Virus record (IMG/VR): IMGVR_UViG_3300036780_000209
Span: 32,001-96,000 of that record
DNA from: a virus
Direction: 5' to 3' (one strand)
Length of the DNA stretch: 64,000 nucleotides
Shown: one piece after another, positions 1,416 to 36,910 of the stretch
How positions within the stretch are numbered: the stretch's first letter is position 1
How the letters are laid out: each line of letters opens with the position of its first letter
Program-made: the position numbers and the translations under genes
The notes under the pieces: generated by a model
Seen by the model: the letters and a program-made list of their open reading frames with translations, nothing else
Database searches by the model: none
What the model was told of the DNA's origin: nothing

Positions 1416-1730
1416 ATGACGACGAACCCGTACTCCCCCCGGGCGATGCTGATCATCCGGGCCGCCGTCCTCTGGCGCGACGCCCGGGACGCCGGGGACC
1501 GCACGAAGCGCGCCACCGTGAGAGACGCCCAGCTTGACGCCTTCTCCCAGGTCGCGGCCGACATCATGGACTTCGCGAGCACGCCGGAGGAGTTCCGGGA
1601 AGCGGTGATCGGGGCCGTGCGCGCCATCCCCTGGACGCTGCGGGAGAGCCTCGGCCGCGACGAGGCCCTGGCCGTCCGGCAGGAGTGGAAGCAGGCCGTC
1701 GCCGATCACGCCGCCAGGGCGCTGGCCTAG
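1416..1730 (+). CDS. hypothetical protein (leaderless)
   Basis: TATACT 6 nt upstream of ATG; GC3-rich codons. Confidence 0.75.
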   Translation: MTTNPYSPRAMLIIRAAVLWRDARDAGDRTKRATVRDAQLDAFSQVAADIMDFASTPEEFREAVIGAVRAIPWTLRESLGRDEALAVRQEWKQAVADHAARALA

Positions 1731-4090: not shown

Positions 4091-4662
4091 GCGTCCACCA
4101 GCTCGCCATTGGTCACGAACCCGTGCCAGCCGTTCGTGCCCGTGCACAGGATCGACGGCGTGACGGTGAGCAGCGGGGCGGTCCCGCTGACCGTCCAGTA
4201 CCCGCCGTCCGAGGCGCGCTGGGTGCTGACCCACTCATGACCGCCGGGCAGCGAGATGATCCACGACTCGGCCCCGCCGGGATGGCGGCTGTATGCGTCG
4301 TGCCAGTCGGCGCGCACCATGGTGCCGGGAGGGGCGTTGCGGCCGAACGAGCCCCACATCGGGAACTCGGTGCCGTCAGGCAGCCGGAAGATCCTGTTGT
4401 CGTTGCGCTGCCACTGGTCGCCGTCCGCGAACTCACGGCCGCATCGCTCGCATGCCGCAGGCCACCGGTCGTCATCATGCGGCCAGTTGTCTCCGTGAAC
4501 GCGCTCGTGCTCGTCCTCGCCCACGGTCCCGGTGATCACGCTGGCGTCGTGGCCGTACTCGTATCCGGGGCATTCCGGCCCCTTGTCGGTGCTGAACGTG
4601 AACCGCCTCAGCATGCGCTCATAGCGGCCGGTGAACTCGGCGATGACGAGGGGGATGCTCAT
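4087..4662 (-). CDS. hypothetical protein with DUF6527-like C-terminus
   Basis: WTVSGTAPLLTVTPSILC...WHGFVTNGEL motif; CxxC. Confidence 0.6.
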   Translation of the reverse strand: MSIPLVIAEFTGRYERMLRRFTFSTDKGPECPGYEYGHDASVITGTVGEDEHERVHGDNWPHDDDRWPAACERCGREFADGDQWQRNDNRIFRLPDGTEFPMWGSFGRNAPPGTMVRADWHDAYSRHPGGAESWIISLPGGHEWVSTQRASDGGYWTVSGTAPLLTVTPSILCTGTNGWHGFVTNGELVDA

Positions 4663-20161: not shown

Positions 20162-21277
20162 TCAGGCCAGCGCCAGCGGGGCAAGCTCGGCCAGGTCAGC
20201 CAGCCCTCCCGCAGCCTCGCCGCCCTCGGCCGCGCCGCCTGCCGCATCTCCGCCGCCGGGCAGCATGGTAGACAGGCCCTTGCCCATCAGGTAGTGCTCG
20301 GCCAGCCCGGGCGAGTGGCCTCCCCCGCCGCTGTCGCCTCCCCCGCCGCTGCTCTCGGGAGGCGGGCCGGGGTCCCCGGATACCTGGGAGTTGGTGAGCT
20401 GGTCCGGGGACAGCGCCGTCACCAGGTAACGGCCCACCACCTGGCGGGCCACCCGCTGGCACTCCGAATCGGGCAGGCCCGGGTTGGCCGCCGCGATCGA
20501 GGCGGCCACCGAGATGACCTGGCGGCGCACCGGGTCGGCCGAGGAAGTCACCTGGCCGACGCCCGCCGGGAGCTGGGGCTGCATGTCGTCCGGGCTGACG
20601 CTGGAGGGCAGGCTCGCTCCCATCGGGGCCACGGTGGTGTCTACCGAGCCCCGCCCCACCCCCATGTCCGGCGGGTCCTCGCTCAGGTAGTCAGCGGTAC
20701 GGCGCGAGGCCGACTTCTTCGGGCTGCAGCCGCACTCGCCGGGGGAACTGCCGCAGGCCTTGCACACGCCCCCCTTGAGCCTGCGCCCGCAAGGGCACCG
20801 GGTGGCGGCCGTCGCCTCGCTCACCCCGGCGGGCTGAGCCTGCCGGGGCACCGTGACCTGGGGCACGGGGCCGCCGGGTGCTCCCTGCGGCACCTCGGAG
20901 TACCCGTGGCTGAAATCAGGCCCCTCGTCATGCTCGTCGGGCTTCTCCGGGCCGCTGCCGAAGCCGCCTCCGTCCGGCACCCAGCCCAGCGGGTCCTGCC
21001 CCTCGGGCAGCGCCATCCGCTGCATCTGGGCCTCGTGGTACAGGCCGAACCGGCGGTCGGCGACCTCGGCCACCTCGTCCGGGTCCGCGCCGTACCGCAG
21101 CGCGATCGTCACCAGGCGGTCCTCCGCCATGGCCCGGCGGTGCAGGTACTCCTGCTCGGTCCTGGCCATCAGCAAGAACGGCATCACGTCCTGCAGCTCG
21201 GCATCGACCCGGGCCAGGGCGGCGGTGCGCTCCATGGCGTCGTGGTCATAGCCGGCCTCCTCCCACAGGGTGGTCAT
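20162..21277 (-). CDS. probable internal virion protein
   Basis: Low-complexity, RRTA/KSAS linkers; shares a motif with 23013..24251. Confidence 0.6.
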   Translation of the reverse strand: MTTLWEEAGYDHDAMERTAALARVDAELQDVMPFLLMARTEQEYLHRRAMAEDRLVTIALRYGADPDEVAEVADRRFGLYHEAQMQRMALPEGQDPLGWVPDGGGFGSGPEKPDEHDEGPDFSHGYSEVPQGAPGGPVPQVTVPRQAQPAGVSEATAATRCPCGRRLKGGVCKACGSSPGECGCSPKKSASRRTADYLSEDPPDMGVGRGSVDTTVAPMGASLPSSVSPDDMQPQLPAGVGQVTSSADPVRRQVISVAASIAAANPGLPDSECQRVARQVVGRYLVTALSPDQLTNSQVSGDPGPPPESSGGGGDSGGGGHSPGLAEHYLMGKGLSTMLPGGGDAAGGAAEGGEAAGGLADLAELAPLALA

Positions 21278-23004
21278 GACTGCTCCCTCATCTTCGCCAG
21301 GCGGGACTGGACGACGGCGCGGAAGGCGGCCTGCCTGCCGTCATGGTGCGGGTTGCCCTGGTCAGCCGCCGCGTTCGAGTAGCCCGGGCCGGCCGCGTCG
21401 TTCGGGGCGGCCGGGGCCAGGTTGATGTTGGTGTAGCCCGGCCCGGGGCCGCTGAATCCCATCTGGGGCTTGCCGTCCGGCTTCGCCGGCTCCTGGGCCG
21501 GCCCGGCCACGTCATCGGACACCACCGGGCCGCCGCCGTGCGGCTCGGCTCCCTGGTACGGGGAGGCCCCTCCCGGGCGGCCGGGATTGCCGCGCCCGCC
21601 CGACTGGGGAGGCGTGCCGGGACCGTTGATGGGGGTCGAGCCCATCGGGTCCGGGCTGGTTCCGGGGCCGTCGGTGATGAGGTCGGTAGAGCTGCCCGCC
21701 TGGACGTACAGGCCTCGCACGAAGACGCTCGGGTTGGCCCGGGCATACCTCCGGGTAAAGCCCTCGTGAGCATCCAGGCGGTCACTCAGGACCGCGTGGA
21801 CGGACCCCAGCCGGTCATGCTCCCGGGCCCACGTTTCCTGGGCCCGGGGATTGTCGGTGATGCCCGCGTACAGCCCCGCCTCAAATGCGGCCGAGCCCTG
21901 GCTGACGAGCCTGCCGCCCTTCCAGTTCAGGGCGTACCGGTATCCCCGGGTGAAATCCGGCTGGGCGAGGGCCTGGGGGGTGACGAAGGCGGCCGAGGCA
22001 CGCAGGCTGGCCTTGGACACCTGGAACTGGGTGCCCGCCTCCTGGGCGTTCTGCGCCTGGCCGCTGTCCCCGCCGAGCGACATCGGGGTGTCCTGGGTGC
22101 CGTACTGCTGCCCGGCTGCCGCATAGCCCTCGGCGTACCCCTTGACGTACGGGCTGACCTTCGAGCTGTTGTCCATGAAAGTCGGCCGCTGCGAGGTGCG
22201 GGCGTCCTGCTGGCCCTCGCTGAACCCGGCCTGGTAGTCCCCGTCCGAGCTGTTCTGGCCCGGGGACGGCTGCGGGGTGGTCGCGGCCGAGTTGAACGGC
22301 GGGGCGAAGTCGTCCGTGGTCTGGTGCGGCCGGGTGAGCGTGTCAGCGTGGCGGCGCACGGCCTCCCTCGGGGTGCCGGCAGGCAGGTTCCGCTGGGCAG
22401 TCGCGTCGGCGTAGGCACCCATGTAGTGCTTGTGCAGGTCCGGCCGGCCGGTCATCTCGGCGTACTGCTTCTGCGTCCACGGGGTGCGCTGGCTCATGGT
22501 ATGAACCATCCCGGCCATCTCGTTGTACGAGCGCAGGTACTGCCCGTGGCCCTTGTCGCTGAAGATCGCCGAGTAGTCGCTCTTGTGGCGGGGCTGCTTG
22601 CCCTCCATGGCGTCCATGCGGCCGAACAGGCGGTGCGTGCCTCCCGAGGCCCTCATGCCGGCTTCCTTCTGCTGCTGGCCGCCCTTCGGCTGCGCGCCTC
22701 CCGGGCCGGTCTCCCACTCGCCCTGGAAAGCCGGGTTCAGCGGGAACATGCTCTCCGGGCTGAACTGGTCGGCCTGCGGGACCTCGGCATTGTTGGGGTC
22801 CACGACCTCATGCGGGTACGACAACGAGGAGGCGGCCTGCACCTCGCGCTCGGCTGCCTTCACCCAGGAGGGGGCAGCGGCCGTGCGGGGAGCCAGGCCG
22901 CCCTCGGCCCGGTGCTTGACGTACCCGCAGTATGCCTTCGCGTCGCCCTTGTCCCCGTTGGCGGAAACGCAGGCGTCGAAGTTCTCATAACCGGCGAACG
23001 GCAC
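21274..23004 (-). CDS. probable internal virion protein
   Basis: N-terminal PFAGYENFDACV...AYCG module; Gly/Pro-rich; RTAA/KEA/RHA linkers. Confidence 0.6.
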   Translation of the reverse strand: MPFAGYENFDACVSANGDKGDAKAYCGYVKHRAEGGLAPRTAAAPSWVKAAEREVQAASSLSYPHEVVDPNNAEVPQADQFSPESMFPLNPAFQGEWETGPGGAQPKGGQQQKEAGMRASGGTHRLFGRMDAMEGKQPRHKSDYSAIFSDKGHGQYLRSYNEMAGMVHTMSQRTPWTQKQYAEMTGRPDLHKHYMGAYADATAQRNLPAGTPREAVRRHADTLTRPHQTTDDFAPPFNSAATTPQPSPGQNSSDGDYQAGFSEGQQDARTSQRPTFMDNSSKVSPYVKGYAEGYAAAGQQYGTQDTPMSLGGDSGQAQNAQEAGTQFQVSKASLRASAAFVTPQALAQPDFTRGYRYALNWKGGRLVSQGSAAFEAGLYAGITDNPRAQETWAREHDRLGSVHAVLSDRLDAHEGFTRRYARANPSVFVRGLYVQAGSSTDLITDGPGTSPDPMGSTPINGPGTPPQSGGRGNPGRPGGASPYQGAEPHGGGPVVSDDVAGPAQEPAKPDGKPQMGFSGPGPGYTNINLAPAAPNDAAGPGYSNAAADQGNPHHDGRQAAFRAVVQSRLAKMREQS

Positions 23005-23012
23005 GGAAAACC

Positions 23013-24251
23013 TCAGCTCTCATCGGACTTCTTGCAGGCCGCGATCACCGGGCGGACCACCGCGAGGAACCCGTGCAGCACGGCCGCGTCGTCGGCCTCG
23101 CGGGCCGACCCGGCATAAGCGGTCACCAGGCGGTTGTGATGGGCCACGAGATCGGACGAAGTCCGGGAAGCGGCGATCACCCGCCGTCCCTCCTGCATGC
23201 CGACGTGCTCCAGGGCAACGCTCCGGGCCACGTCCTCGTAGCTCTGCGAGTAGCCGACGGCCACCGAGGCGGTGTGCTCCGTGCCGCAGCGCTCGTCCGG
23301 CCAGTGCTCGGCGCGGCACGCCACGTGGAAAGGAGCCTCGGCGTAGGCGGAGCCGGTGACCCACCGGAAGCCGGCCTTGTCCGGGACGCTCCACGACGCG
23401 GCCCGGTTCTGCAGGTGATCGCTGTCAGCCACCTGATCCGTCCCCGCGACCGGGTTCGGGGTGGCCGGGCCGCCCTGCTGGGAGACGGGAGCCGGGGCGG
23501 CGGGGATGGTACCCGGCGGCCCGAGCGGCACTTCGGCGTAGCTGTTCGAGGTGTCGAAGCCGGTGGTGTGCTCATCGGGCTTCTCCGGCCCGGACCCGAA
23601 GCCCGAGCCGCCGCCGTCCTGCTGCTCGACCTGCTGGATCAGCGGGGCGCTCTCGCTGCTGATCGCGCTGGCGTGGTTGTCGCTTTCCACCCCGCCGTTG
23701 TAGTCGTTGACCTCGGGAGCGAAGTTGTCGAAGACCTGGCCCGGCATCGGGGTAGCGGACGGCTGGTTGTCCGGGTCGATCGTCTGCTGGATCTGGGGCA
23801 GGCCGGAGGCCGCCCCCTTCTGCAGGGCGGCCGACAGGATCGCGACGCCGCTCAGGAACTCGTTCCTGGCAGCGGCGGCATGCTCTCCGTACCGGCCGGC
23901 CAGGGACGCGGCACGGCCGTAAGCCTGCGCCGTGAACTCCTCCTGGTCATGCAGGACAGCCTGGTCGAGCCCCTGGATCCACGCCGACGCCTCGGCGATC
24001 ATCGGCACCCGGTAGTCGGCCGGTGCCTCGTAGTCCGCCAGCCAGTCGGTCGCGGCCGTGTGGTGCTCGTGGACGGGGACCGGGGTGAGCGCGGCGGTGA
24101 CGTGGCGGGCGGCCATGTCCAGCTCGCGGGACTGGGCATGCACCTGACGGCGCTGCCCGTCGAAGGTGTCGAGGGCGGCGACGGCGGATGCCAGGACCCG
24201 CCCGTCGTGCGCCTCCTGGATGGCCCTCACGAGCGTGGCGCGTTCCGTCAT
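23013..24251 (-). CDS. probable internal virion protein
   Basis: RBS AGGAGG; KGAA/NRAA linkers. Confidence 0.6.
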   Translation of the reverse strand: MTERATLVRAIQEAHDGRVLASAVAALDTFDGQRRQVHAQSRELDMAARHVTAALTPVPVHEHHTAATDWLADYEAPADYRVPMIAEASAWIQGLDQAVLHDQEEFTAQAYGRAASLAGRYGEHAAAARNEFLSGVAILSAALQKGAASGLPQIQQTIDPDNQPSATPMPGQVFDNFAPEVNDYNGGVESDNHASAISSESAPLIQQVEQQDGGGSGFGSGPEKPDEHTTGFDTSNSYAEVPLGPPGTIPAAPAPVSQQGGPATPNPVAGTDQVADSDHLQNRAASWSVPDKAGFRWVTGSAYAEAPFHVACRAEHWPDERCGTEHTASVAVGYSQSYEDVARSVALEHVGMQEGRRVIAASRTSSDLVAHHNRLVTAYAGSAREADDAAVLHGFLAVVRPVIAACKKSDES

Positions 24252-24790: not shown

Positions 24791-25069
24791 TCAGGCGGGA
24801 GCGGGTTCCTCATCCTCTTCGAGCGTGATGCCGTGAGCAGCCAGGATGCCCCCTGCGATCTCGGCCCGGCGCACCTGGCGGGCACTGCGCAGGAAGTCCA
24901 TGCCCTTGTGCCAGAGCTGGGAGTCCGGGGCATCGATCTTGAGCAGCTCGTAGATGCGGTCCAGGGCCTCCAGGCCGGCGATCCGGGCATGCAGCTCGGC
25001 GGGCCAGGCCCCCACCTCTACCAGGTCGAAGTCATTTTCCTTGCTCGGCTCGGCGTCAGGCACCGGCAA
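24791..25069 (-). CDS. hypothetical protein
   Basis: ORF track, packed in operon. Confidence 0.6.
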   Translation of the reverse strand: MPVPDAEPSKENDFDLVEVGAWPAELHARIAGLEALDRIYELLKIDAPDSQLWHKGMDFLRSARQVRRAEIAGGILAAHGITLEEDEEPAPA

Positions 25070-25646
25070 CTCCCGTCAGGCTCATCAGGCCGCGCAGGAT
25101 GCGGGCCTCCGCTTCCACGGAATGGAACGTGAAAGCGGGATGGTACAACGGCACCAGGCCGCACGAGTAACCGCTCTCCGGCGACTTCCAGGTCATCCTC
25201 TTGCCCTCCAGCTCGGCCAGGGACCCGCCGGGCACGAGGGCTCGCAGCGCCACGCCGCCCAGGGACACGATCATCGCGGGTCGCACCAGGTCCAGCTCGG
25301 CATGGAGACAGGGGCGGCTGGCCATGATCTCGTACGGGTACGGCGTGCGGTTGCCCGGGGGCCGGTACTTCACCACGTTGGTGATGTAGCAGAACTGGCG
25401 CGGGATGCCGGCCCGGCTCAGGAGGCGGTTCAGGACATCCCCGGCGGCCCCCACGAAGGGCTTGCCGCGCTCGGCCTCCTCACGGCCGGGGGCCTCGCCG
25501 ACGAGCGCCAGCGGGGCGCTCAGGAGCCCGCAGGGGCCTACTAGCGGAGACCCGGCAGCGAGCGGGGCGAGCAGGGGCTGCTGCCGGTAGCTGGCTAGTG
25601 CCTGGGCGAGTACCGCTGCCGGGTCCGGCGCTTCCTCAGGTTCCAC
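25056..25646 (-). CDS. udg: uracil-DNA glycosylase, family 4-like
   Basis: VGEAPG...GKPFVGAAG, YITNVVKYRPPGNRTP, LYHPAF; start uncertain. Confidence 0.9.
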   Translation of the reverse strand: MEPEEAPDPAAVLAQALASYRQQPLLAPLAAGSPLVGPCGLLSAPLALVGEAPGREEAERGKPFVGAAGDVLNRLLSRAGIPRQFCYITNVVKYRPPGNRTPYPYEIMASRPCLHAELDLVRPAMIVSLGGVALRALVPGGSLAELEGKRMTWKSPESGYSCGLVPLYHPAFTFHSVEAEARILRGLMSLTGVAGA

Positions 25647-25897
25647 GTGATCAGCCACCAGGTCCGGGCTAGCAGGGAGGTCATGGCAAGGGAGATGAAG
25701 AGCAACGCGCAGAATACCGCGATCACGATGGCGGCGAGGAGAACTATCTCGACTCCGGTCACCGGGCGGAAGAAGAAGCACAGCTCCGCCGTGACGAGAG
25801 CCAGCATCAGCGCGGTGAAGGCGAGCGGCGGCCCTTTCCTGCGCGGCAGATCGTCGCGGATGACAGGGATGGGCTCGGTGGGCTCATCCCCGCTCAT
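25595..25897 (-). CDS. two-TM membrane protein
   Basis: Two hydrophobic helices, basic C-terminus. Confidence 0.6.
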   Translation of the reverse strand: MSGDEPTEPIPVIRDDLPRRKGPPLAFTALMLALVTAELCFFFRPVTGVEIVLLAAIVIAVFCALLFISLAMTSLLARTWWLITWNLRKRRTRQRYSPRH

Positions 25898-27124: not shown

Positions 27125-29593
27125 TCAGTTCCTTCCGAGCGGAATGGACTCCCAGCGTCCGCCCCGACAGTACCAAATTTCCCCGACAGGCCACTTCATC
27201 TTCTTCACCTGCGGCAGGAAGCGCACGGGCTGCTTGCTGTAGGCGAGCGTGATGTGCGGGAGGAAGCCATGCTTGGCCGGGATGGCCGAGATGCCGTGCC
27301 CCTTCAGGAAATCCAGGAGACTGCCGTGGATCTCGTGGCCGCCGGGGATGTCCACCAGGGCGTGCAGGGCATGGTTGCCCTTGTTCGCGAAAGTGCCGGA
27401 CCCCTGGGTCGTGGCCTCGAACGGCCGCTGGGTCTTGGCCCACTGGCGCACCAGGTCCTCCAGCTTGCCGAGCTGCCTCTCAGGATGATCATCTTCCTCG
27501 CCCAGGTAGAGCAAGGTGATGTGCATCTTGGAGCGCGCCTCAGTCTCGTGCCGCAACGGCTTCATGATGTCCCGCAGGTGGTCGAGCACCTCAGCGGGAG
27601 GCACGATCGCCACCATCATCGACTTGCTGATGCCGTCGGCCCCGTCACGGGAGGGGACCGTGCGGACGGCCGCCGTGCTCGGCGCGAACGGCTGGGTGGT
27701 CTCGACATGCCTGATCACCGTCGCGCCCGGAGCCATGTACTGCCGCAGGCCGGCCGGGTGCGTCATGTTCCCGAGGTGCCCGTGGGGCTCGACCTCGTGG
27801 ATGTGGTGCCTGCCGATCGTCTCGGCCCACTCGCGTGCCGTGCCCAGGTCTCCCGACATGTAAATCCGGCCGCCAGGATGCGGCGCGGTCAGCTCCGTTC
27901 CCGGTTCCAGCATCTCCGCTGAGGCATGGAAGAGCCGCTCTGGCCGCTGAGCAGCCGCCTCCCTGGGGATCCCCAGGTGCTCGTAGTCGGCTGCGCCGCG
28001 CCCGCTGTGCCTGATGGTGATGGTGCGGTCCATCGGGTGCCACTCCCACCCGGGGTCCGGCTTGACCGCGCCGGGGGCCGACGGGTCGCGTTTCATGTCC
28101 TCGCGAGGGTAGCGGAGGTGACCGGGGGCCTCGGTGTCGTCGCCTCCGGGGTGGTGCCAGACGTAAGCACCGTGCAGCTTCACCTGCGCCCCGGGGCGGA
28201 ACCGCACCTCGGCCTCGCTGTCCAGGGACCTGTGCTGGCCGTACCAGATCGGGTGGTCACGGGGGAAGTGCTGGTCCGGGTGATCCACCTGGCCCTGCCA
28301 GAGCACGACCTTCTTTCCCGGCCAGGCATACCCCTTGATGGCCATGTCGGGGTCAGCCGTCCAGTGCATGCCGGTGGTAGCGTGCTCCAGGTCCTCTCCT
28401 GCAGGACGGTGCTCCCCCCGCCAGACGTGCGTGCCGGGCTCGGGGTTCTTCGCCACCTCCAGGAAATGGCGCCGGATTCCCCGCCACCCTTCGGGCTCGT
28501 CATACCGCTGGAAGACGGCCCTCTGGGCAGGCGGGAGGTCCTCGTCCCGGAAGGAGGCTGTCTTGCCCTTGGCGTACCACTCGTCGCAGGTGTAGTCGAA
28601 CATGATGCCGCCCTTGACCAGGGTGCAGCTTCCGGGCTCCGAATCACCCGGCGCGGGGCGGAACATGACGCAGCTCCCGCAGCGCTTCTCCCCCTCGGCC
28701 GGGCGGTAATTCACCTGGCCCTTGTTCTTCCTGCGAGCTGCCCATTTGCCCCTGAACGGATCATCATGCTCGCCCCGGCGCATATATGCCTTGTATTCCT
28801 CGGGGAATTGCTGCCTGCGCGTATTACGCCAGTGATCACTGTCCCTGAGATGGCTCTCGCTGTCCTCCGGCCAGTAGTCCCCGTGCTCTGGAGTGCGGAC
28901 GTAAGGGATGCCCTTCCCGAGCTTCCACGCAGAAACCAGGCGGTGATGACCCTGGCCGACTTCCCATTCGCCCTCTCCGTGGTGGGCAATCTCAACCGGG
29001 TGCGTCACTCCGTGCTGGCGGACATGATCAGTCAGCTCAGCCATGTACTTCGGTTCCCGGTGATGCAGTGCCTCGGAAACATAACTGATGTCCCGGCCCG
29101 GGTAATCACTGAAAGTGAGCTTGCCGAATTCATGAGGATGAAGAGTGCCGCTCTCGCCTTCGTCCTCGTCAGGATCCTGTATCGAGCCCGTGCTCGAAAA
29201 GAGCAGCGCACGCAGCTTGCCCAGCAGGTTATGGGGGTGCTGGTCGAGGTACTTCTCGATGACGTTGCCCGGGTCGGACCACCCTTCGCCTTCCCCGCTG
29301 AACGCCTCCGAGCGCATGTCGTGGATGTACTGCCACAGGGACCTGGCCTGGCGGGTGCGCTGGGGCTCGTCGAGCTTGAGGATCGCCCGGAGCTGGGCAG
29401 CGACGGCACGGGCCTCGGTGAGGAGCGCGGGGTGGAAGTCAGCCGCGCTGTGCTCGGGCAGATCAGGAGGTTCCACTGCCCAAGTGTTATTCGTCAGATC
29501 ATAAGCGGCATAGGGCTTGATCTGCCGGATATCATAGGCATCGTGGTTAACGTACCAGGTCATATCAAAAGAGTCACGCGCTCGCTGTGGCAT
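27125..29593 (-). CDS. polyvalent effector protein, part B (NTase C-terminal half, ParB-like, HiPIP-like, two ART-like domains, 2H phosphoesterase)
   Basis: Own RBS AAGGAG+ATG; TWYVN...IKPYAAYDL; GQGHHRL; CGSC...C...C; VWRG...HWT...EAEV; LFHAS...IYMS...HEVEP (Arr-like); two HITL motifs. Confidence 0.8.
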   Translation of the reverse strand: MPQRARDSFDMTWYVNHDAYDIRQIKPYAAYDLTNNTWAVEPPDLPEHSAADFHPALLTEARAVAAQLRAILKLDEPQRTRQARSLWQYIHDMRSEAFSGEGEGWSDPGNVIEKYLDQHPHNLLGKLRALLFSSTGSIQDPDEDEGESGTLHPHEFGKLTFSDYPGRDISYVSEALHHREPKYMAELTDHVRQHGVTHPVEIAHHGEGEWEVGQGHHRLVSAWKLGKGIPYVRTPEHGDYWPEDSESHLRDSDHWRNTRRQQFPEEYKAYMRRGEHDDPFRGKWAARRKNKGQVNYRPAEGEKRCGSCVMFRPAPGDSEPGSCTLVKGGIMFDYTCDEWYAKGKTASFRDEDLPPAQRAVFQRYDEPEGWRGIRRHFLEVAKNPEPGTHVWRGEHRPAGEDLEHATTGMHWTADPDMAIKGYAWPGKKVVLWQGQVDHPDQHFPRDHPIWYGQHRSLDSEAEVRFRPGAQVKLHGAYVWHHPGGDDTEAPGHLRYPREDMKRDPSAPGAVKPDPGWEWHPMDRTITIRHSGRGAADYEHLGIPREAAAQRPERLFHASAEMLEPGTELTAPHPGGRIYMSGDLGTAREWAETIGRHHIHEVEPHGHLGNMTHPAGLRQYMAPGATVIRHVETTQPFAPSTAAVRTVPSRDGADGISKSMMVAIVPPAEVLDHLRDIMKPLRHETEARSKMHITLLYLGEEDDHPERQLGKLEDLVRQWAKTQRPFEATTQGSGTFANKGNHALHALVDIPGGHEIHGSLLDFLKGHGISAIPAKHGFLPHITLAYSKQPVRFLPQVKKMKWPVGEIWYCRGGRWESIPLGRN

Positions 29594-30176
29594 CACGCTG
29601 CTCCTTCTGCTTGGCACGGATACGTCTCTTAGATTCCCGCTCTATATGACGCCTGTGCTCCGGATCCTGGGCTCTTTGCTTTGCATGATCAGCAAGAATA
29701 GCTTCCTTATTCCGATCATAAAACCCCGTCTTAGACTCCCTCGCGCATTTCCGGCAATTCCGTCTTCCATCCTTGAGGAAGAAGTACTCACAGCCATGCT
29801 TAGGGCATCTTTCCTTGCGCGAATTCCTATGCGTGCCATGCCTGACTGAATCCAGCATGTTCTCGCTCTTGGTGCCCCACTCAAGATTACTAGGAGAGTT
29901 ATCTTGATTTTCGCCATTAAGATGACGAGCTTCGAACTCGTCAGGGCACGGACCGTTAACTGCCTCGCAGACGAGTTGGTGGATATATCCACGGGTAATT
30001 TCGCCCTCACGTGACATAGCTATATAGAGGTAACCCTTCCTGTCAGCTTGCAGCTTCAAGAAGTTGCCGCCACGGAGCCCGCGCCGTGTCTGCCGGGGGA
30101 GGCTCCGAGCGCGCCCGCAGCTAGACACCTCGTACAGCTCCTCCCAGTCCCTGACCGGAAACCAGATCTCGGTCAT
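29574..30176 (-). mobile_element. NUMOD4-HNH homing endonuclease gene inserted in nucleotidyltransferase coding sequence
   Basis: EIWFPVRDWEELYEVSSCGRARS (NUMOD4), IHQLVCEA...ARHLNGENQDNSPSNLEWGT; AT-richer than flanks; flanking direct repeat. Confidence 0.9.
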
Positions 30177-33100
30177 CGCGCTCTCCTGGCAGATGATAAT
30201 CCGGGTCATTGAGTGCAGAACGCATCAGCTTGTTAAAGAAACCATCAATCTCAGACTCGGAGATAGAAGAGTATCCTGGATTATCCCGATAGAAGGTGGA
30301 ATAATTTATTCCTACCAAGATATCCAGGTCGTTATTACCTTCCAGTTCAGGTCCGGTCCAGCGGCTCGCCTCGCTGCCACTCAAATATACCTTGCTCCAA
30401 GCCTGCCAGTGGACAAAGCCCTGATCCCGGCAGAAGGCATCCCACTTCTCCATGACGGATTCACGAACTTCCGGCCGCAGCTCGCCGGCCTCGGTGAAGA
30501 GCCGGTGGTCCAGGCCATAAGTTGGGCCGAAGATGCCCCGGGCAGGCATCCAGCGAGTGCCCTGGGGCAGCGGAGCGGACAAGCGGCTGACCGGCCCGGC
30601 AGTCGCTGCCTCGTGCGAAATCCTGTCGTCGTTTCCCTCGTGAAGACGGGCCTCGATCTGGTGCGGGCGGAAGGCAATCGCCGAAGTATTAGCGGCAGCT
30701 CCACGGCTGGACTTCTCGAACTCATTGCCGTAGGTAATGCCGTCATGACCCTGATCTTCGAGGTGCTTCCTGAAGCGCTGGGCGATCTCGTATTTGTCTG
30801 GGTGCGCATTCAGCCACCCCATCGCGTAGGTGTGCTGAGCGGTGTGGTGATGGCCCGCGCGCATCGGGTCCGGCTCGCGTCGGTCCCGCATGCGGTCGCC
30901 ATGGTCAACGAAGTGATAGGCCGGGATCTCTTCTCTCAGTTCGTCGTGCCAGCCTTCCTTCTGCGCGTCCCGGTACGTCGCCATGTCGAGGTGCTTCTCC
31001 GGATGATTACCCGCCTTCCACTCGTGCTCGTAAACCTCCTGATCCATGTCGTGCTCGGAGTGGTAGTGCTTAGGGTTCCGAATGTTCAGGCGGGCATGCA
31101 CGATATGACCAGCCGGCTGATCGTCAGGGTCTTCCTGCTCGTAATCCGGGTTCCGGTGCTCGCCCTTACTGAATTCTCTGGCAACGTGATGATCAGCGGT
31201 GAAGTGCGATCCCATAAGGGTGTTCCAGTGCGAGGTATCGCTTTCATCGTGATCGAATTCAAGCGGACTGAAGTTATCGAACTTGGCGAAGCGATGCGGG
31301 CTCCCGTGAAACCACTCGCTGCCTTTGGTATGTGGGTTAGCCAGCGGGCGAGGCTGATGCGTCATATCGAAGAGCTTTAGCTGGCTATTCGGAAGCGCCA
31401 CGCCCACCTTGATGTTCCCCTGGTCGCCCTTGGTGATCTCTGGCGAAATTGATTCCACTCGATCCATAGGAATACGCTCACGGGTCCTGATGTAATCGTC
31501 AGCCGAGTGAGTAAACCACTTATCCGCCAGCTCATGGCGGATCTTGAGCACGTGCCCGGTGCCATTCCTGGGCAAGTAGGAGACGGCACTACGCGGATCG
31601 ACGGCCGCATTAGTACCCTCCCAGTCAGCAATCGTCCCGCGCCGGTCTGACTGGAGGTACCCGCGATCACGGGCCTGCGCCAGTTCATCGGCTGAAACGC
31701 CCCGGTAGACATGATGCACGGGCTCATCGCGGACCTTTTTCGGATATGCCAGGGCATTGGTGACCCCGGGGATGCCATGGTCCCAGACCTCGAAGTGAAC
31801 CGGTCCCTCCCCCCTACCCGCCGGGTGGTGAAGCCTGCGCGACTCGCCAGTCTCGACGCTGTATCCACTGCGCGGGTGGATAACCCGGTTAGCCTCTAGC
31901 CGCCTGGGATGGAACCAGTTCTCCAGGTGCTGGTCCAGCTCGTCATTGGTCATGGCCCCCTTGCGCAAACCAGGGAGCGAGACAGCCGCCGTGTGCTCCC
32001 CGGACCAGGAGTCAGTCTGGCCGGTGCGCTTGCGGTTGCCGTACCCGTACCAGGTGATGCCCTTGATCCTGACCGGAGCGTCCTCCCTGAGCGGGATCTC
32101 GCGCTCGCTGCCGCCCCAGCCGCCGTAGTTGGAGACACCTCCCTCTCCCAGGCGTCTCCGGTCGGTCTCTATGTGCCCGACATCGGGCAGCTTCGCATGC
32201 AGAATGACCTTGGTCGAGCCCGGCAGGTTGGTCCTGCGCTCGAAGTCGGCGAAGTGCCGGGACACCTGCTCCGTCGCGGACCAGTGCATGCCGAGGGGCT
32301 TGTCCCTCAGGTGGTCGGCAATCGCCTGGGCCTGCCTGTCCGGGTCCTGGAACTGATCGTGGACGAACCGGTGCACGTCCTCGGGCAGCTCGACCGCCAG
32401 CCCCCGGTGCATCAGCGGCTCGCTGCGCTTCCTGAACCGGAGCTTCCGGAGGTGCTCTCCCCACTGCTCCTCGGCCGACGGAGGCTCCCAGGCCGCCGCC
32501 CCGAGGGACCGCACCCATGCCTTCCCGTCGTCAGTCCGGTCGGTGGAGTGCTTCGCCCGGGGCGTCATCTCCTGGGACCAGTTCCACATGGCCGTGGCCA
32601 GGCCCTTGTGCCGATGCTGCGCGTGCACGTCGATGCTCTCGACCTGGTGCTTCGTGCCCATCCAGGAGAGCTTGCCGACTGCCTGCTCATGATCGGGGTG
32701 CCAGGCCTCGATGACGTGACGGGGCCTGCGCTCTCCCTCGTCCGACGTCCGGTAGCGCATCGTGTAGTCGCCGAACTGCCGCTCGTCACCCTCCTGCTGG
32801 CGGACGGCCACGTGCCGATCCGGGCCGCCTATCCGCTGCCAGGAGTGAGGTTCATGCTCCCATGCTTCAAGACCGTGCTCCTCCCACCGGGATTCATCCA
32901 GGTGCTCAGGCCAGTCCGGGCGATCGGGGAGGGATGCCTCCATGTGGTGAATGCGAACCGGAGCGCCGGACTTGACAAGCGTCTCCTGCTCGTCCTTGTG
33001 GGTAAGTCCTTGCCAGCCGTGCCCTTCTACCATGGCCGAGCGCAGCTCATCGGGATCGCTGACGTGGTGAGACTTCGCGATGCTTCCGTGCATCACGACG

Positions 33101-34125
33101 GGAACGTGCATGTAGAACGGGCTCGGAACTGTTGTCCGCGCCTCGTGAGTCAGCGGATGCGCGAACCTGCGGGCAATGTCCTCCCGCGCCGACCAGTGCT
33201 CTCCCAGGTGCTCACCGACATGCTGGCGGATAAGGTCATGCACCGCCGGATGACCACCTGAACGGTAGGCCCCGGTGATGTCATCCGGGGCCATCTCGAT
33301 GCTGATTCCACGATGCAGTACCTGCCGGGCCGCAGCATTCCGCTCACGCCAGTTGTCCCACTGCTCCTGCTGGGCATCGTCGTCATACAGGGAGCGGAAA
33401 TGCTCGGGCTTTATGCTGGCAGCGGGAATGGAATAGTGCTTTTCCCCGGACGGGAACTCATCCTCCAGGCGGGCCATTTGCTCGGGGACGTGAAGGTGCA
33501 CCGCGTCATTCCCGTAGCCCTTCGCCTGGGCAAAAGGCGCGTTGCTGAAAAACACCACCGGGCGGCCGTGCTCGTCGTTCTCCTCCGGCTTGAACGCCAT
33601 GTCCTTCCAGATGCGGCGGGCACCTGACGGGGAAGTGTGATGCCAGAGATGGATCATCCGGGCGGCAGTCTTCTCCCCGGCCCAGCGGCCCGATCGCTCC
33701 AGGTTGAAGGCGGCGTCGAATTCCTCCGGGGTGGAAGGACGGTGCTCCGTCATCACGGGCGGCTTGCCCGGCTGGTGACGCACCACGACCGGAACGTCAT
33801 GAACTCCGGCCCGCTGCGCGGCATCCAGGCGGTGCATGCCGTTGAAGGTGGTAGGGCCTCCGTGAGCCGGGAAGTCCTCGATCGCCAGGGGGTGCTGCAC
33901 CCCGTTGCGCCGGACATCAGCGGTCAGCTCCCGCCAGTGGCGGCGGCGGGGCGGGTGGTCGTCGCAGTACCCCTGTGGCTCGGACGCGGCCAGGGTGCCG
34001 CTGGCGTCGCAGGGATAGCACTCGTGACCGTCGCGGTGCTCTCCCGAGCCCTGGCAGCACGCGCAGGACTTCCGGCCGCGACCCGGGCGGGCAGCCCCGA
34101 AGTGAGCGAGCAGGTCGGCAGTCAT
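30121..34125 (-). CDS. polyvalent effector protein, part A (Zn finger, ParB-like, five ART-like domains, GNAT, NTase N-terminal half)
   Basis: FNGMHRL; LWHHTS..VFFS; LHRG..HWS..EQE; HRHKGLATAMW (GNAT); MHRG..HWS..EREI; VYRG; WFHGS..GSHFT..GHDGITY; YLSGSEAS..NDLDILV (Pol-beta NTase). Confidence 0.8.
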   Translation of the reverse strand: MTADLLAHFGAARPGRGRKSCACCQGSGEHRDGHECYPCDASGTLAASEPQGYCDDHPPRRRHWRELTADVRRNGVQHPLAIEDFPAHGGPTTFNGMHRLDAAQRAGVHDVPVVVRHQPGKPPVMTEHRPSTPEEFDAAFNLERSGRWAGEKTAARMIHLWHHTSPSGARRIWKDMAFKPEENDEHGRPVVFFSNAPFAQAKGYGNDAVHLHVPEQMARLEDEFPSGEKHYSIPAASIKPEHFRSLYDDDAQQEQWDNWRERNAAARQVLHRGISIEMAPDDITGAYRSGGHPAVHDLIRQHVGEHLGEHWSAREDIARRFAHPLTHEARTTVPSPFYMHVPVVMHGSIAKSHHVSDPDELRSAMVEGHGWQGLTHKDEQETLVKSGAPVRIHHMEASLPDRPDWPEHLDESRWEEHGLEAWEHEPHSWQRIGGPDRHVAVRQQEGDERQFGDYTMRYRTSDEGERRPRHVIEAWHPDHEQAVGKLSWMGTKHQVESIDVHAQHRHKGLATAMWNWSQEMTPRAKHSTDRTDDGKAWVRSLGAAAWEPPSAEEQWGEHLRKLRFRKRSEPLMHRGLAVELPEDVHRFVHDQFQDPDRQAQAIADHLRDKPLGMHWSATEQVSRHFADFERRTNLPGSTKVILHAKLPDVGHIETDRRRLGEGGVSNYGGWGGSEREIPLREDAPVRIKGITWYGYGNRKRTGQTDSWSGEHTAAVSLPGLRKGAMTNDELDQHLENWFHPRRLEANRVIHPRSGYSVETGESRRLHHPAGRGEGPVHFEVWDHGIPGVTNALAYPKKVRDEPVHHVYRGVSADELAQARDRGYLQSDRRGTIADWEGTNAAVDPRSAVSYLPRNGTGHVLKIRHELADKWFTHSADDYIRTRERIPMDRVESISPEITKGDQGNIKVGVALPNSQLKLFDMTHQPRPLANPHTKGSEWFHGSPHRFAKFDNFSPLEFDHDESDTSHWNTLMGSHFTADHHVAREFSKGEHRNPDYEQEDPDDQPAGHIVHARLNIRNPKHYHSEHDMDQEVYEHEWKAGNHPEKHLDMATYRDAQKEGWHDELREEIPAYHFVDHGDRMRDRREPDPMRAGHHHTAQHTYAMGWLNAHPDKYEIAQRFRKHLEDQGHDGITYGNEFEKSSRGAAANTSAIAFRPHQIEARLHEGNDDRISHEAATAGPVSRLSAPLPQGTRWMPARGIFGPTYGLDHRLFTEAGELRPEVRESVMEKWDAFCRDQGFVHWQAWSKVYLSGSEASRWTGPELEGNNDLDILVGINYSTFYRDNPGYSSISESEIDGFFNKLMRSALNDPDYHLPGERDDRDLVSGQGLGGAVRGV

Positions 34126-34374: not shown

Positions 34375-36477
34375 TCAAGATCGCGACATCCGGCGCGGCG
34401 AGGTGCCCCTGCCCCCGTAGCCTGCCCCGGGACGGCCCGTGCGCCCCATGCCGGAGTGCAGGCCCCGGTGCATCCCCGACTGGCCGAGCGCCAGGCCGAA
34501 CGGGTTGGAGAACTGGCCCGGGTCGAACCGCTTGTACGGGTCGTCGCCGCCGGGGAGACTCAGGCCGGGCCGCTGGCGGGCCAGGTCGCGGCCGAGGAAG
34601 GTGCCCATCTGCTCGCCGAGCAGGGCGGCCGTGACGATCGCGACGCAGTCGGCGATGTCCTTGGTCTGGACCGGGCCCGAGGTAGGGCAGATGACCTTGG
34701 ACTGGCCCTCGGGCTTCTGGAGGAACTTCAGCTCCTGGGCCGCCTCCATGTGCACCGGGGCATGCACCAGCCCCATGTTCAGGCATGCCTTGAAGGTCTC
34801 GTAGGTACTCCAGTTCAGGGCGGCCGTGGCATCGCGGACATAGACCTGGACGTTCTTCTGCAGGTGCCCGGCCCGGACGCGCTTCTGCAGCGCCTGGACC
34901 GTGGCCGGGGCATTGAACTGGTCGAACGTCAGCTCGTCCGGCTGGAACCTGGTGACCACGTTGGAGTAGATCCACTCGATGATCTCGTCGTAGTCCACGA
35001 AGTGATCGTCGTAATCCGCCGGATCCCAGAAGTGGATGAGGTCGAACACCGCGTGATTCAGGCCGTCGGGGCCGGGCTCCTCGTGGGCCAGGGCAAAGCC
35101 GAACCGGCAGTTGACGTTCGAGGGGTCACCGTGCGCCCGGTAGCTGACCAGGAGGGGTCCCCGGACCTGGTTCTCCAGGTGCGGCGGTCCCCAGTCAGGG
35201 TGGCGCTCGCCCCAGTCGGCGAACATGCCGTCCACCCGGGCGGCAGCCAGGTAGGCGTCCATCGCGGTAGCCCAGTTGGACAGGCGCTCCACCCGGAAGG
35301 CGTCCGGATTGGCGCGCTCCTCCTTGCGCATGTTGTCGTCGTAGGCCTGGATCGCCCCGCGCAGCTTTCGGAAGCGGGGAACTTCGGCGTGCTCCTGCAG
35401 GTCCCCCGTGAAGCCAGGCGGGAAGATCTCCAGCTCGTGCGCCCGCTCCCAGTCCTTGTACGGCCCCCAGGAGGGGAGCTGCAGCATGAGCTTGTTCTGG
35501 TAGACCGCCATGAGCTGGTCGTCGTGCAGCTCGCGCTGCAGGGACAGCTCCCACAGCTCGTAGAAGCGCCCTGTCATCTCCCAGGTGGAGCTGGGCAGGA
35601 TGATGAAGGCGTCGGTGCCGAACTGGTCCAGGGACGGGGTGGCGGCATTGTAGACGGCACCGAACTCGCGGGTGATCCCCGCGTTCTTGACGTGGGCGGC
35701 CTCGTCGAACCCGACCAGGAAGCCGGCCTGGCCACGGGGAGCCACCAGGGTGGACTCCCGGGGGACGATCGAGAAGCTCGCCATGTCCCGGGTCGTCCGG
35801 ATGCCCCGGGCTGCCATCTTCCGCATCCGGACGAAATCATAGGGAGCGTAAACCGTCAGCGATTCCGCCAGGGGGGCGGAAATGTATTCCGTGAAGCACG
35901 GGGCCGTCGTGATGACGTTGTAAAGGTCCCCCCAGAGGTTTTCCTTGGCCTGCTCCCTCTTGCTCGCGAAGATCATTGCCGAGAGCTGCTTGTTCGGGTC
36001 AATGCCGTAGTATTCCTGGGGGTTTCCCTTGGCCAGGTAATTCCAGAGCACGTAGGCCATGGCCAGGGAAGAGACATAGCCTTTAGCGCCACGGCGGCCG
36101 ATTGCCAGGATAACCTCGCGGAACCACCGGTAATTGTGTGCTTTCAGCCACGCGATCCGCTCGTAGACATCAGGCTGGATCCCGTTGGTGCGGGCCGTGA
36201 ACTTATTCTCGACTCCGGCGTCAGGGTTGGTCTCGTTGAAGTCGTTGATCCACTCTGCGATGACCTGGTGGTCGTAATCGGTGAACAGGTCGTCGCGGAG
36301 GAAGATGATCTTGAGCAGGGTTGCCTGGCGGGGGTAGAGATTGGGCTTGTCCAGCCAGTGCTCGCTGAGGACGAAGGTGATCGGGTCCGGGACCGGGAGG
36401 TTGTCGTACCACCCGAGCACCTCCAGGGGGTTCATCCCTCCGGTGTCGGGAGCCTCCCAGAAGCCGGGCCTCGGCAT
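34375..36477 (-). CDS. terL: terminase large subunit
   Basis: Walker A IGRRGAKG, Walker B LVGFDEAAH, LPSS motif III, RNaseH-like acidic residues HGDPS / TFDQFN / KDIADC; start 36477 or 36435. Confidence 0.85.
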   Translation of the reverse strand: MPRPGFWEAPDTGGMNPLEVLGWYDNLPVPDPITFVLSEHWLDKPNLYPRQATLLKIIFLRDDLFTDYDHQVIAEWINDFNETNPDAGVENKFTARTNGIQPDVYERIAWLKAHNYRWFREVILAIGRRGAKGYVSSLAMAYVLWNYLAKGNPQEYYGIDPNKQLSAMIFASKREQAKENLWGDLYNVITTAPCFTEYISAPLAESLTVYAPYDFVRMRKMAARGIRTTRDMASFSIVPRESTLVAPRGQAGFLVGFDEAAHVKNAGITREFGAVYNAATPSLDQFGTDAFIILPSSTWEMTGRFYELWELSLQRELHDDQLMAVYQNKLMLQLPSWGPYKDWERAHELEIFPPGFTGDLQEHAEVPRFRKLRGAIQAYDDNMRKEERANPDAFRVERLSNWATAMDAYLAAARVDGMFADWGERHPDWGPPHLENQVRGPLLVSYRAHGDPSNVNCRFGFALAHEEPGPDGLNHAVFDLIHFWDPADYDDHFVDYDEIIEWIYSNVVTRFQPDELTFDQFNAPATVQALQKRVRAGHLQKNVQVYVRDATAALNWSTYETFKACLNMGLVHAPVHMEAAQELKFLQKPEGQSKVICPTSGPVQTKDIADCVAIVTAALLGEQMGTFLGRDLARQRPGLSLPGGDDPYKRFDPGQFSNPFGLALGQSGMHRGLHSGMGRTGRPGAGYGGRGTSPRRMSRS

Positions 36478-36478
36478 C

Positions 36479-36910
36479 TCAGTGAGAGTGCCCGTGCGAG
36501 TGCGGGTGACCATGTCCGTGAGAACGGCCGTGATCCATGCCGCCGCCGGCCCTGAACTTCTTGAAGGCATCCCCCTGGTCGGTCCTGATGACCTCGCCCT
36601 TGTCCTGGCCCGGCAGCTCCAGGATGTTCTGGGTGACCTCCCAGACCTGGCGGTCCGGGTCGAAGGAGCTGAGGCGGCCGGTCACGGTGACCTCGGGCAT
36701 CGCCGATCCGGCCTGAACGACGCCCCCGACGGCGTAGCTATGCCAGTTCACGTCCACCGCGAAGCCGATGTCCTCGAAGCGGCTCCGGATCTCGCGCTCG
36801 AAGGCCTCGTAGTTGTGCGCCTTCAGGCGAGCCCGGTCCTGCAGGACGGAGAGGATCTTCGTGATCTCATCGACCTCGGAGTCAAGTACTTCTAGTACGC
36901 TGTTACCCAT
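36479..36910 (-). CDS. hypothetical protein upstream of TerL, His-rich tail
   Basis: MGNSVLEVLDSE...HGHGHPHSHGHSH; native RBS displaced by HNH insertion. Confidence 0.7.
   Translation of the reverse strand: MGNSVLEVLDSEVDEITKILSVLQDRARLKAHNYEAFEREIRSRFEDIGFAVDVNWHSYAVGGVVQAGSAMPEVTVTGRLSSFDPDRQVWEVTQNILELPGQDKGEVIRTDQGDAFKKFRAGGGMDHGRSHGHGHPHSHGHSH

Follow-up and report, generated by a model that had tools for sequence, protein, structure and literature searches.

The DNA examined here, called the window, is a stretch of 64,000 nucleotides (nt) covering positions 32,001 to 96,000 of the virus record IMGVR_UViG_3300036780_000209. Between positions 27,125 and 34,125 its minus strand carries two open reading frames (ORFs), P0001 and P0002, that together represent one ancestral gene coding for a polyvalent protein. 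About 14 modules, each folding on its own, make up the chain: a Zn ribbon, two ParB-like domains, seven domains of the ADP-ribosyltransferase (ART) fold, a GNAT acetyltransferase, a probable nucleotidyltransferase (NTase), a HiPIP-like domain and a 2H phosphoesterase. The modules are separated by short joints ending in Ala. Alignment of relatives gives the family joint consensus [KRH]-T-A-[AGSV], of which R-N-A-A, H-V-A-V, H-E-A-A and R-E-A-A, among others, are degenerate variants. This motif is enriched in the head-module proteins of this phage and of a cultured relative, and in neither case in the rest of the proteome. We favour the hypothesis, to which we give a probability of about 0.6, that the capsid maturation protease cuts after the motif Ala and that the polyvalent chain is a head-cargo polyprotein released as single enzymes.

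Modules of the polyvalent chain

All three ORFs of the locus lie on the minus strand, the two coding parts of the polyvalent gene being separated by a homing endonuclease gene:

30121-34125, minus: P0001 ORF, 1334 amino acids (aa), third-position G+C 0.77
29574-30176/30209, minus: free-standing NUMOD4 and HNH_3 homing endonuclease ORF splitting the NTase, 200-211 aa (Pfam HNH_3 1.9e-14, NUMOD4 4e-8)
27125-29617, minus: P0002 ORF, 830 aa, third-position G+C 0.83

Module borders were set by iterated hidden Markov model (HMM) profiles within the family combined with profile-profile comparison (hhalign). From the amino to the carboxyl terminus the modules (M1 to M14) are the following; pLDDT and pTM are the predicted local and global quality scores of AlphaFold2 models:

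33928..34125, minus: M1, Zn ribbon with two CxxCxGxG motifs (P0001 1-66); HMM matches in 28 family segments, N-terminal in most relatives
33667..33927, minus: M2, ParB_N-like (P0001 67-153); Pfam ParB_N E 0.006, below cut-off; paralogue of M10
33337..33660, minus: M3, small ART-fold module (P0001 156-263); AlphaFold2 pLDDT 80; invariant H-x-T ... GE..Y
32815..33327, minus: M4, diverged ART-PolyVal-like module (P0001 ~266-437); hhalign 99% to an ART-PolyVal-seeded profile and 100% to M6
32506..32799, minus: M5, GNAT acetyltransferase (P0001 443-540); homologous segments in relatives P0005 and P0010 match Pfam GNAT families, E 1e-6 to 2e-9
31996..32490, minus: M6, ART-PolyVal-like, paralogue of M4 (P0001 546-710); HMM, hhalign and family alignment
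31390..31980, minus: M7, ART-fold module (P0001 716-912); AlphaFold2 pLDDT 79, pTM 0.76
30616..31368, minus: M8, ART-PolyVal (P0001 920-1170); Pfam PF18760 E 0.0027, sub-threshold; hhalign 100%
30172..30588, minus: M9a, N-terminal half of the probable NTase, GS ... DLD (P0001 1180-1318); homologue BLAST, family alignment and Atlas features
29168..29593, minus: M9b, C-terminal half of the probable NTase (P0002 residue 9 onward, homology 16-140); homologue BLAST and sequence reading
28748..29167, minus: M10, second ParB-like module (P0002 151-290); HMM link to M2 and to ParB_N-bearing relatives
28565..28732, minus: M11, 4-Cys HiPIP-like module (P0002 296-351); Atlas structure search
27965..28552, minus: M12, ART-PolyVal-like (P0002 356-551); hhalign 96-99.8% to ART-PolyVal, M4 and M6
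27680..27949, minus: M13, Arr-ms-like (rifampin-ART-like) module (P0002 557-646); Arr-ms-seeded HMM 8e-12, hhalign 99.7%
27125..27664, minus: M14, 2H phosphoesterase (P0002 652-830 and the stop codon); Pfam 2_5_RNA_ligase2 6e-13 and LigT_PEase 3.5e-8, both above cut-off

When scanned directly with Pfam and PHROG, the two ORFs return only the 2H domain and a weak ParB_N match. M14 scores 49.4 bits with PF13563 (cut-off 27) and 33.9 bits with PF02834 (cut-off 23.3) and displays the motifs HITLLY and HITLAY, while the homologue of M2 in relative P0007 reaches 26.0 bits with ParB_N for a cut-off of 26.3.

The ART fold is assigned to M4, M6, M8, M12 and M13 by profile links to segments bearing PF18760 or PF12120, and to M3 and M7 by structure prediction. 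PF18760 is matched by 6 of 20 relatives, with a best E-value of 2e-5. M4 and M6 share an invariant H-R...H-W...E (alignment A1); family alignments give H-G...H-W-N as invariant in M8 and H-x-T...G-E in M3, all of them candidate catalytic residues. M3 and M7, for which sequence search gives no match, were modelled with AlphaFold2 from family alignments and compared exhaustively (VIA) with 48,161 PDB representatives. Nearly all of the best 50 structural matches of M7 are ART-fold proteins, headed by KptA (Z 9.4) and Tpt1 (Z 7.7) and followed by TreX, the pertussis and heat-labile toxins, PARPs and DarT. The best 50 matches of M3 are of the ART fold as well, with diphtheria toxin (Z 8.1) and KptA (Z 7.8) ahead of protein 6b and TreX/TreTu. 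Foldseek E-values for the two models are weak (0.02-0.03), and the assignment is made because the match lists are consistent throughout, not because of any single Z.

The NTase identity of M9 is probable. Its family alignment (A5) has invariant G70, D86 and D88 in a GS...DxD arrangement, and Atlas feature scores of 0.93-0.95 relate it to viral clusters, one of them named nucleotidyltransferase and another with PF01909 in 23% of its members. Pfam and PDB profile searches with the NTase are blank; Pfam scans of family members of the NTase and of M4/M6 give no match, and the PDB sequence library searched with the M4/M6, M8, M7 and NTase alignments yields nothing meaningful. M11, with the pattern C-x2-C-x15-C-x13-C, superposes in the Atlas on PF01355 clusters with a TM score of 0.84 over 56 residues, a stretch so short that the score means little and serves as a lead only. 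A direct Pfam scan of M11 gives no match at E <= 1. The module also superposes on a viral Atlas cluster of 566-aa proteins that all carry Peptidase_S78, which suggests that this small 4-Cys domain recurs in head-protease contexts.

An initial annotation of this DNA had listed about seven ART-like modules, a GNAT, an NTase, two ParB-like domains, a 4-Cys HiPIP-like module and a 2H phosphoesterase. The ART count is borne out, by profile links for five modules and by fold matches for two; the GNAT, ParB-like and 2H assignments are supported as well, the NTase is probable and the HiPIP-like module is only a lead. Its proposed segments correspond to domains in the AlphaFold2 models of M3 and M7 and in the profile alignments of other modules. 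The exception is the "R-G...HWS...ExE type" ascribed to part of the ARTs, an R-S-E classification: we drop this label for M4, M6 and M12 because profile links tie them to ART-PolyVal (hhalign 96-99%), which makes them diverged relatives of M8.

Joints inside the chain

The sequences found between the modules, or at the end of the leader, are listed below:

34090..34104, minus: end of the N-terminal leader, HFGA/A-RPG (residues 8-12); when internal in relatives, the same module is preceded by [KRH]TA-A(V)RPG
33661..33672, minus: strict joint K-T-A-A (P0001 152-155)
33328..33342, minus: joint R-N-A-A-A (P0001 262-266), M3/M4 gap
32803..32814, minus: joint H-V-A-V (P0001 438-441), homologous to E-H-T-A-A in relative P0004 (alignment A1)
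32491..32505, minus: joint L-G-A-A-A (P0001 541-545), without a basic residue at P3; ends of BLAST high-scoring segment pairs (HSPs) cluster at 541-545
31984..31995, minus: strict joint H-T-A-A (P0001 711-714)
30604..30615, minus: joint H-E-A-A (P0001 1171-1174), M8/NTase gap; RTA-A at this place in relatives
28736..28747, minus: joint K-W-A-A (P0002 291-294)
28553..28564, minus: strict joint K-T-A-S (P0002 352-355)
27950..27964, minus: joint R-E-A-A-A (P0002 552-556)
27668..27679, minus: joint S-T-A-A (P0002 647-650)

A linker is present in 10 of the 13 gaps between HMM-defined module envelopes. Gaps, with 326 residues in all, hold 8 copies of the pattern [KRH]xA[AGSV], and module interiors, with 1795 residues, hold 9 (Fisher p = 0.002); AA runs are distributed as 8 in gaps versus 10 in interiors (p = 0.003). 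The R-E-L-T-A-D that follows the Zn module corresponds to P-[KR]-T-A-A in relatives.

The motif among relatives

The family set comprises 58 relatives of 600-2290 aa from a protein collection, mostly encoded by metagenomic contigs, several of which are 150-167 kb long. Border zones were defined solely by the starts and stops of BLAST alignments between these relatives, and the dipeptides most enriched in them include TA (2.6x), KT (2.5x), HT (2.3x) and AV (2.3x), with AA at 1.5x. The strict motif [KRH]TA[AGSV] has 116 copies in the 80,215 residues of the family versus 17.9 +/- 4.3 in shuffled sequences (z = 22.7), a count inflated by the kinship of the sequences, although the sites follow many different modules; four permuted or altered control patterns are not enriched in the family. 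On average 9.4 HSP termini lie within +/-10 residues of a motif site compared to 2.3 at random (maximum of 1000 random sets, 4.0), and alignments tend to end immediately ahead of the motif and to start immediately behind it. [KRH]-T-A directly follows recognisable module ends, being found after the Zn module, after ParB, and both before and after the NTase.

Enrichment at the core positions is 4.7x for K, 3.0x for H and 2.5x for R at the first, 4.3x for T at the second (E and Q come next), 4.7x for A at the third, and 4.2x for A, 2.6x for V and 1.8x for S at the fourth, where the preference is A>V>S>G. The flanks are unconstrained. Codons vary at the motif sites (ACG, ACC, ACT or ACA for Thr; GCC, GCG or GCT for Ala), showing that the constraint acts on the protein and ruling out DNA-level microhomology as the cause of the motif.

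The relatives freely reshuffle the same types of modules, the Zn module being usually first and the NTase and 2H modules late. A generic joint would allow modules to be swapped, duplicated or lost at the joints, as seen in the relatives; the modules would be exchangeable there because the joint is generic. In relative P0033 an M7-type ART-fold module is fused to a Mu-type portal. This protein of 1188 aa (L001:6385-9951, plus strand), from a 16-kb metagenomic contig, combines the Mu-type portal (E 2e-43) and the M7-type module with a C-terminal ADPrib_exo_Tox domain.

These results agree with the earlier proposal that Ala-ending linkers mark the domain boundaries and serve for module exchange. 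All ten internal linkers listed at that time fall in inter-module gaps, the enrichment of boundaries over interiors appears both in the window and in the HSP termini of the family, and exchange at the joints is visible across the 58 relatives in BLAST alignments, HSP termini and architectures. The (K/R/H)-x-A-A motif then put forward captures a real joint signal, better described by the consensus [KRH]-T-A-[AGSV], of which several window sites are degenerate versions.

The motif in head proteins

Genes of the whole virus record were called by third-position G+C. Eight proteins, totalling 7551 aa, were considered as head-linked: P0001, P0002 and the products of the following genes:

1727..4234, minus: portal protein (phrog_2833, E 5e-143)
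20162..24251, minus: three consecutive disordered proteins of 412, 576 and 371 aa, with a strict motif after short leaders (HTAA 64, RTAA 40, RTAA 17)
genome 160354-164652 (L007:4354-8652), minus: 1432-aa protein with an N-terminal head maturation protease (phrog_18299, E 1e-18)
genome 3222-8507 (L002:3222-8507), outside the window, minus: second polyvalent-like protein, 1761 aa

They contain 11 strict motifs for 1.57 expected, a number reached in 0 of 1000 shuffles, in a set that was partly chosen after the motif had been seen. The remaining 34,440 aa of the proteome contain 10 motifs for 8.4 expected.

The position of the motif within these proteins is informative. An R-T-A-A (window 3908-3919) closes the N-terminal leader of the portal protein, and in the disordered proteins the leader that precedes the motif is 16-63 residues long. 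The 1432-aa protein, whose gene adjoins those of the cement and capsid proteins, is organised as protease, DUF7178, double zinc ribbon and coiled-coil C-terminus, with a K-T-A-A preceding the coiled-coil part. In the 1761-aa protein an ART-PolyVal-like module lies between two H-T-A-A, accompanied by two ParB-like stretches and long acidic or Pro-rich spacers; its carboxyl terminus matches gp96 of Mycobacterium smegmatis phage Spud and gp12 of Gordonia phage RedWattleHog, the gene before the protease.

Since the head-linked set of the genome under study had been noticed in part through the motif, the distribution was tested in RedWattleHog with the block fixed beforehand. The block from TerL to capsid holds 13 of the 20 motifs of this phage, in gp8, gp9, gp12 and gp13, for 0.98 expected, and 0 of 500 shuffles reach 13; all other ORFs together have 7 motifs for 8.4 expected (20 copies in 118 kb). 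Gp13 is annotated as capsid maturation protease. In RedWattleHog the N-terminal leader of the portal includes L-T-A-S, at the matching place when the two N-termini are read side by side. Several motifs are also present in Spud gp96 and gp97, among them one that directly follows the protease domain and another some 20 residues short of the carboxyl terminus.

The three disordered proteins have no family match and no homology by BLAST to RedWattleHog gp8 or gp9; they are candidate head-internal or ejection proteins. They are of low complexity and share a GFGSGPEKPDEH stretch. RedWattleHog gp9 (L010:7076-9214, plus strand) is a 712-aa hypothetical protein with seven strict [KRH]TA[AGS] sites, two of which are six residues apart. 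Residues ~230-480 of the 1432-aa protein resemble translated antisense sequence. A Pfam search of the genome found neither Peptidase_S78 nor HK97 capsid nor Portal_Mu; portal, capsid and protease were identified via PHROGs alone.

A protease signal or a passive joint

The capsid maturation protease is the likeliest cutter because the motif is enriched only in head-module proteins of both proteomes. We rate cutting by a protease as the most likely function of the motif since a portal leader, a C-terminal piece of a protease-scaffold protein and internal proteins are documented prohead protease sites elsewhere. We infer that the chain would be taken into the prohead, that the capsid maturation protease would then cut it at the joints to free the modules as separate enzymes, and that these would enter the host along with the DNA. 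Packaging is further suggested by the portal-M7 fusion of P0033. Injection and anti-defence roles are put forward only as analogies to Alt and the internal proteins of T4 and to the proposal made for polyvalent proteins; effectors of this kind may counter NAD- or nucleotide-based defences.

Besides the kinship effect and the partly motif-guided choice of proteins mentioned above, a number of points weigh against this hypothesis. The strict motif is present at just 3 of ~13 joints of the window (KTAA, HTAA and KTAS), and the M7/M8 joint and the end of the NTase hold mere remnants (VGVAL and SSTGS). The protease domain of the 1432-aa protein is recognised by a PHROG profile alone and not by Pfam or PDB sequence searches, the latter giving chance matches only. 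In the major capsid protein the most that is seen is a loosely conserved R-x-A close to the N-terminus; among capsid homologues (representatives at 50% identity) the loose R-x-A precedes S-x-D-Y in some only. Folded enzymes of 10-28 kDa are assumed to survive packaging and ejection. A search of the literature on virions of cluster C phages, E3 and Myrna found no cleavage or proteomic data. Finally, the genome encodes two separate polypeptides and not one 2133-aa chain, and the second of them is devoid of the conserved N-terminal module.

The motif could also be a passive inter-domain linker or recombination joint in a polyvalent protein that stays intact, like the virion RNA polymerase of N4. 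High-G+C proteomes often have linkers rich in Ala, module exchange does occur at the motif sites and some polyvalent proteins are packaged unprocessed (PMC5512222). However, four specific residues between free flanks are more than such a linker would call for, and it would not be confined to head-module proteins when the rest of two proteomes is unenriched. The motif also ends short N-terminal leaders of proteins that are not modular and sits near the carboxyl terminus of the protease-scaffold protein, while the varying codons speak against microhomology of the DNA. We consider this explanation unlikely.

Instead of the capsid maturation protease, the chain might be cut by a protease of the host, by a peptidase module that escaped recognition or, once injected, by itself, the last as proposed for polyvalent proteins bearing an MPTase. 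Autoproteolysis by embedded peptidases is what Iyer et al. 2017 propose (PMC5512222), and our assignment of the protease is circumstantial, being based on one PHROG profile and the RedWattleHog annotation. Yet Pfam and PHROG scans detect no peptidase family in either ORF or in six relatives, the large modules are all assigned to other folds, and the motif marks the protease-scaffold protein and the portal leader, which are typical prohead protease substrates. These observations render a different cutter quite improbable compared to the capsid maturation protease.

Phage and genomic context

The genome, a virus record of 166,498 bp, belongs to a soil actinophage of the Bxz1-like lineage with portal, capsid and terminase genes. 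The identity of its capsid protein is ~60% with cluster C mycobacteriophages (Bxz1, Spud) and 56-58% with phages of Gordonia and Rhodococcus; a megablast search of the phage collection reveals no near relative. Two genes in the vicinity of the polyvalent gene are the following:

34375..36570, minus: TerL, the large terminase subunit; tblastn with the annotated TerL of Rhodococcus phage E3 gives 32% identity over 83%, E 1e-89; weak phrog_9
25056-25781, minus: uracil-DNA glycosylase (UDG) family gene, between the polyvalent gene and the disordered proteins; Pfam UDG 2.6e-27; same relative place in relative L009

TerL, which gives no match to PDB sequences, ends 250 nt upstream of the polyvalent gene on the same strand, so that the location just downstream of TerL claimed by the initial annotation is correct. 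The 164-kb relative L009 keeps the order TerL, polyvalent gene, second polyvalent gene, ..., UDG.

This neighbourhood bears on whether the chain is packaged at all. A multi-enzyme produced late or early that stays in the cytoplasm and has, by descent, a motif serving the head proteins for some other reason would be in keeping with the UDG and the small non-structural ORFs just downstream, and with the lack of a MuF or portal domain in the window copy. Against it stand the position directly after TerL, kept in a relative, the existence of a relative fused to a portal and a motif common only to head-module proteins. We give this possibility little credence and retain head cargo as the preferred role of the chain.

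Gene split by the homing endonuclease

Removal of 29573-30171 (599 nt), which corresponds to the HNH ORF alone, joins ...GERDD to SFDMTWY... and restores by sequence reading a frame of 1318 + 815 = 2133 aa, as had been announced for the two ORFs without their HNH insert. P0001 continues past ...L-P-G-E-R-D-D for 16 out-of-register codons inside the HNH gene to a stop at 30121. P0001:1192-1313 and P0002:16-140 align by BLAST to adjoining stretches of a single protein in more than 15 homologues; examples of contiguous NTases are P0004 (971-1097 / 1099-1224) and P0034 (221-344 / 346-694). One ancestral gene is deduced because these homologues keep the NTase uninterrupted and because the 599-nt deletion restores the frame.

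The phage nonetheless encodes two polypeptides, since there is no intron signal and the length of the insert is not a multiple of three. Rfam searched over 29000-30800 gives no group I intron match at E <= 1 at the HNH gene, and an intein would require an in-frame insert, which 599 nt is not. Translation of the second polypeptide could start at an ATG preceded at the right distance by AAGGAG, inside the 3' end of the HNH gene. The single effector polyprotein envisaged at the outset thus holds for the ancestral frame and not for the products encoded here.

The two NTase halves are predicted to re-associate, complex prediction giving an ipSAE of 0.82 versus 0.23 for the best of 3 controls; the mark used is reached by 58 of 80 solved complexes and by 2 of 110 mismatched pairs. 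At least 63% of the contacts recur between runs, the partner pLDDT is at least 67, and the D-L-D strand pairs in the model with the first strand of the second half. Because both chains are halves of one domain, this result mainly reflects likeness to the intact fold. The second polypeptide may travel with the first via the rejoined halves. If it does, a string of beads might tolerate a homing-endonuclease split, the halves of the broken bead re-associating and carrying the second polypeptide along.

It is very improbable that the gene was inactivated by the HNH insertion and is decaying with its modules and joints as relics: the NTase is interrupted within its domain, the first ORF closes with 16 out-of-frame residues and no intron or intein is recognised, but both parts remain open over 1334 and 830 aa with the third-position G+C values given above, the second has its AAGGAG and ATG, the NTase halves are predicted to reassemble, and the G+C content of the insert, by eye much lower than that of its surroundings, is consistent with a recent arrival of the HNH gene.

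A homologue of 1445 aa, P0028, has LAGLIDADG_3 (PF14528) in its precomputed Pfam list. Its polyvalent gene may thus carry an intein or another homing endonuclease, in parallel to the HNH split.

Relation to known systems

The internal proteins IPI-III and the ADP-ribosyltransferase Alt of phage T4 have a capsid-targeting leader that is removed by the prohead protease gp21 before they are injected (reviewed in PMC9026906). In T4, as proposed here, effector enzymes including an ART are packed in the head and trimmed at a short motif. T4 differs by using separate genes with one N-terminal cut after L/I-x-E, whereas the window chain has many modules strung together with an Ala-ending signal at the joints. 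In herpesviruses the capsid protease assemblin acts on itself and on the scaffold at maturation and release sites of the type (V/L/I)-x-A followed by S; the resemblance, to the cut predicted here after Ala before a small residue, is one of the site only. Polymorphic toxins of temperate phages fused to MuF or portal proteins bring effector domains into the capsid attached to a head protein, an arrangement found in the Portal_Mu-ART fusion of relative P0033. The window protein has neither a MuF nor a portal anchor and consists of many modules instead of one C-terminal toxin.

The motif distribution resembles that of other prohead protease substrates, a short motif being common to the portal, the scaffold/protease and internal head proteins and unenriched elsewhere. 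The prohead protease of phage SPN3US, gp245, cleaves after A-x-E in three kinds of substrate: the propeptide of the portal, ejection proteins and its own C-propeptide (PMC10052503). Phages phiKZ and SPN3US similarly have one motif in the portal N-propeptide, the protease C-propeptide and abundant internal proteins (PMC10052503, PMC5694885), a distribution like that of [KRH]-T-A-x in the phage studied here. They differ by the A-x-E motif, by belonging to an unrelated lineage and by substrates that are not enzyme chains.

Polyvalent proteins of phages and conjugative elements, with predicted delivery together with DNA, were described by Iyer, Burroughs, Anand, de Souza and Aravind in 2017 (PMC5512222). 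The window chain is such a protein, with ~14 modules of at least 7 kinds, the typical domain repertoire and a late or virion gene context. It shares with the described cases the many unrelated domains (ART-PolyVal, ParB-like, GNAT, 2H, NTase) and heavy shuffling, and its seven ART-fold modules in one chain are at the upper end of the described range. Its variant feature is a defined protease-type joint of four residues common to the head proteins of the phage, in a chain without a peptidase module. How the domains are separated has so far been guesswork, the published proposal being processing by embedded zincin-like (MPTase) peptidases; a text search of that article finds no mention of linkers (PMC5512222).

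Implications for Bxz1-like phages

The joint signal, whose association with the head module is backed by statistics for this phage and one cultured relative and which also occurs in Spud gp96 and gp97, accounts for the free shuffling of modules. It predicts the specificity of the capsid protease for a large and much-studied group of phages that includes the M. smegmatis phages Bxz1 and Spud, an idea that can be tested directly on phages already in culture collections. It also provides a rule for delimiting injected effectors (ARTs, 2H enzymes, NTases) in metagenomic phage genomes.

A tentative generalisation, to which we would not quite give even odds, concerns the whole Bxz1-like lineage, that is cluster C mycobacteriophages, Stormageddon-like Gordonia phages, Rhodococcus phage E3 and their soil relatives. 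In these phages [KRH]-T-A-[small] may define head cargo, and the enzyme modules it flanks could be separately released injected effectors. The giant "beads-on-a-string" genes would evolve by swaps of beads at the cut sites, and the phage studied here would deliver seven different ADP-ribosyltransferases at once.

In relative L009 a gene of 520 aa (L009:21889-23451, plus strand), located a few genes downstream of the polyvalent genes, has a match to animal haem peroxidase (PF03098).

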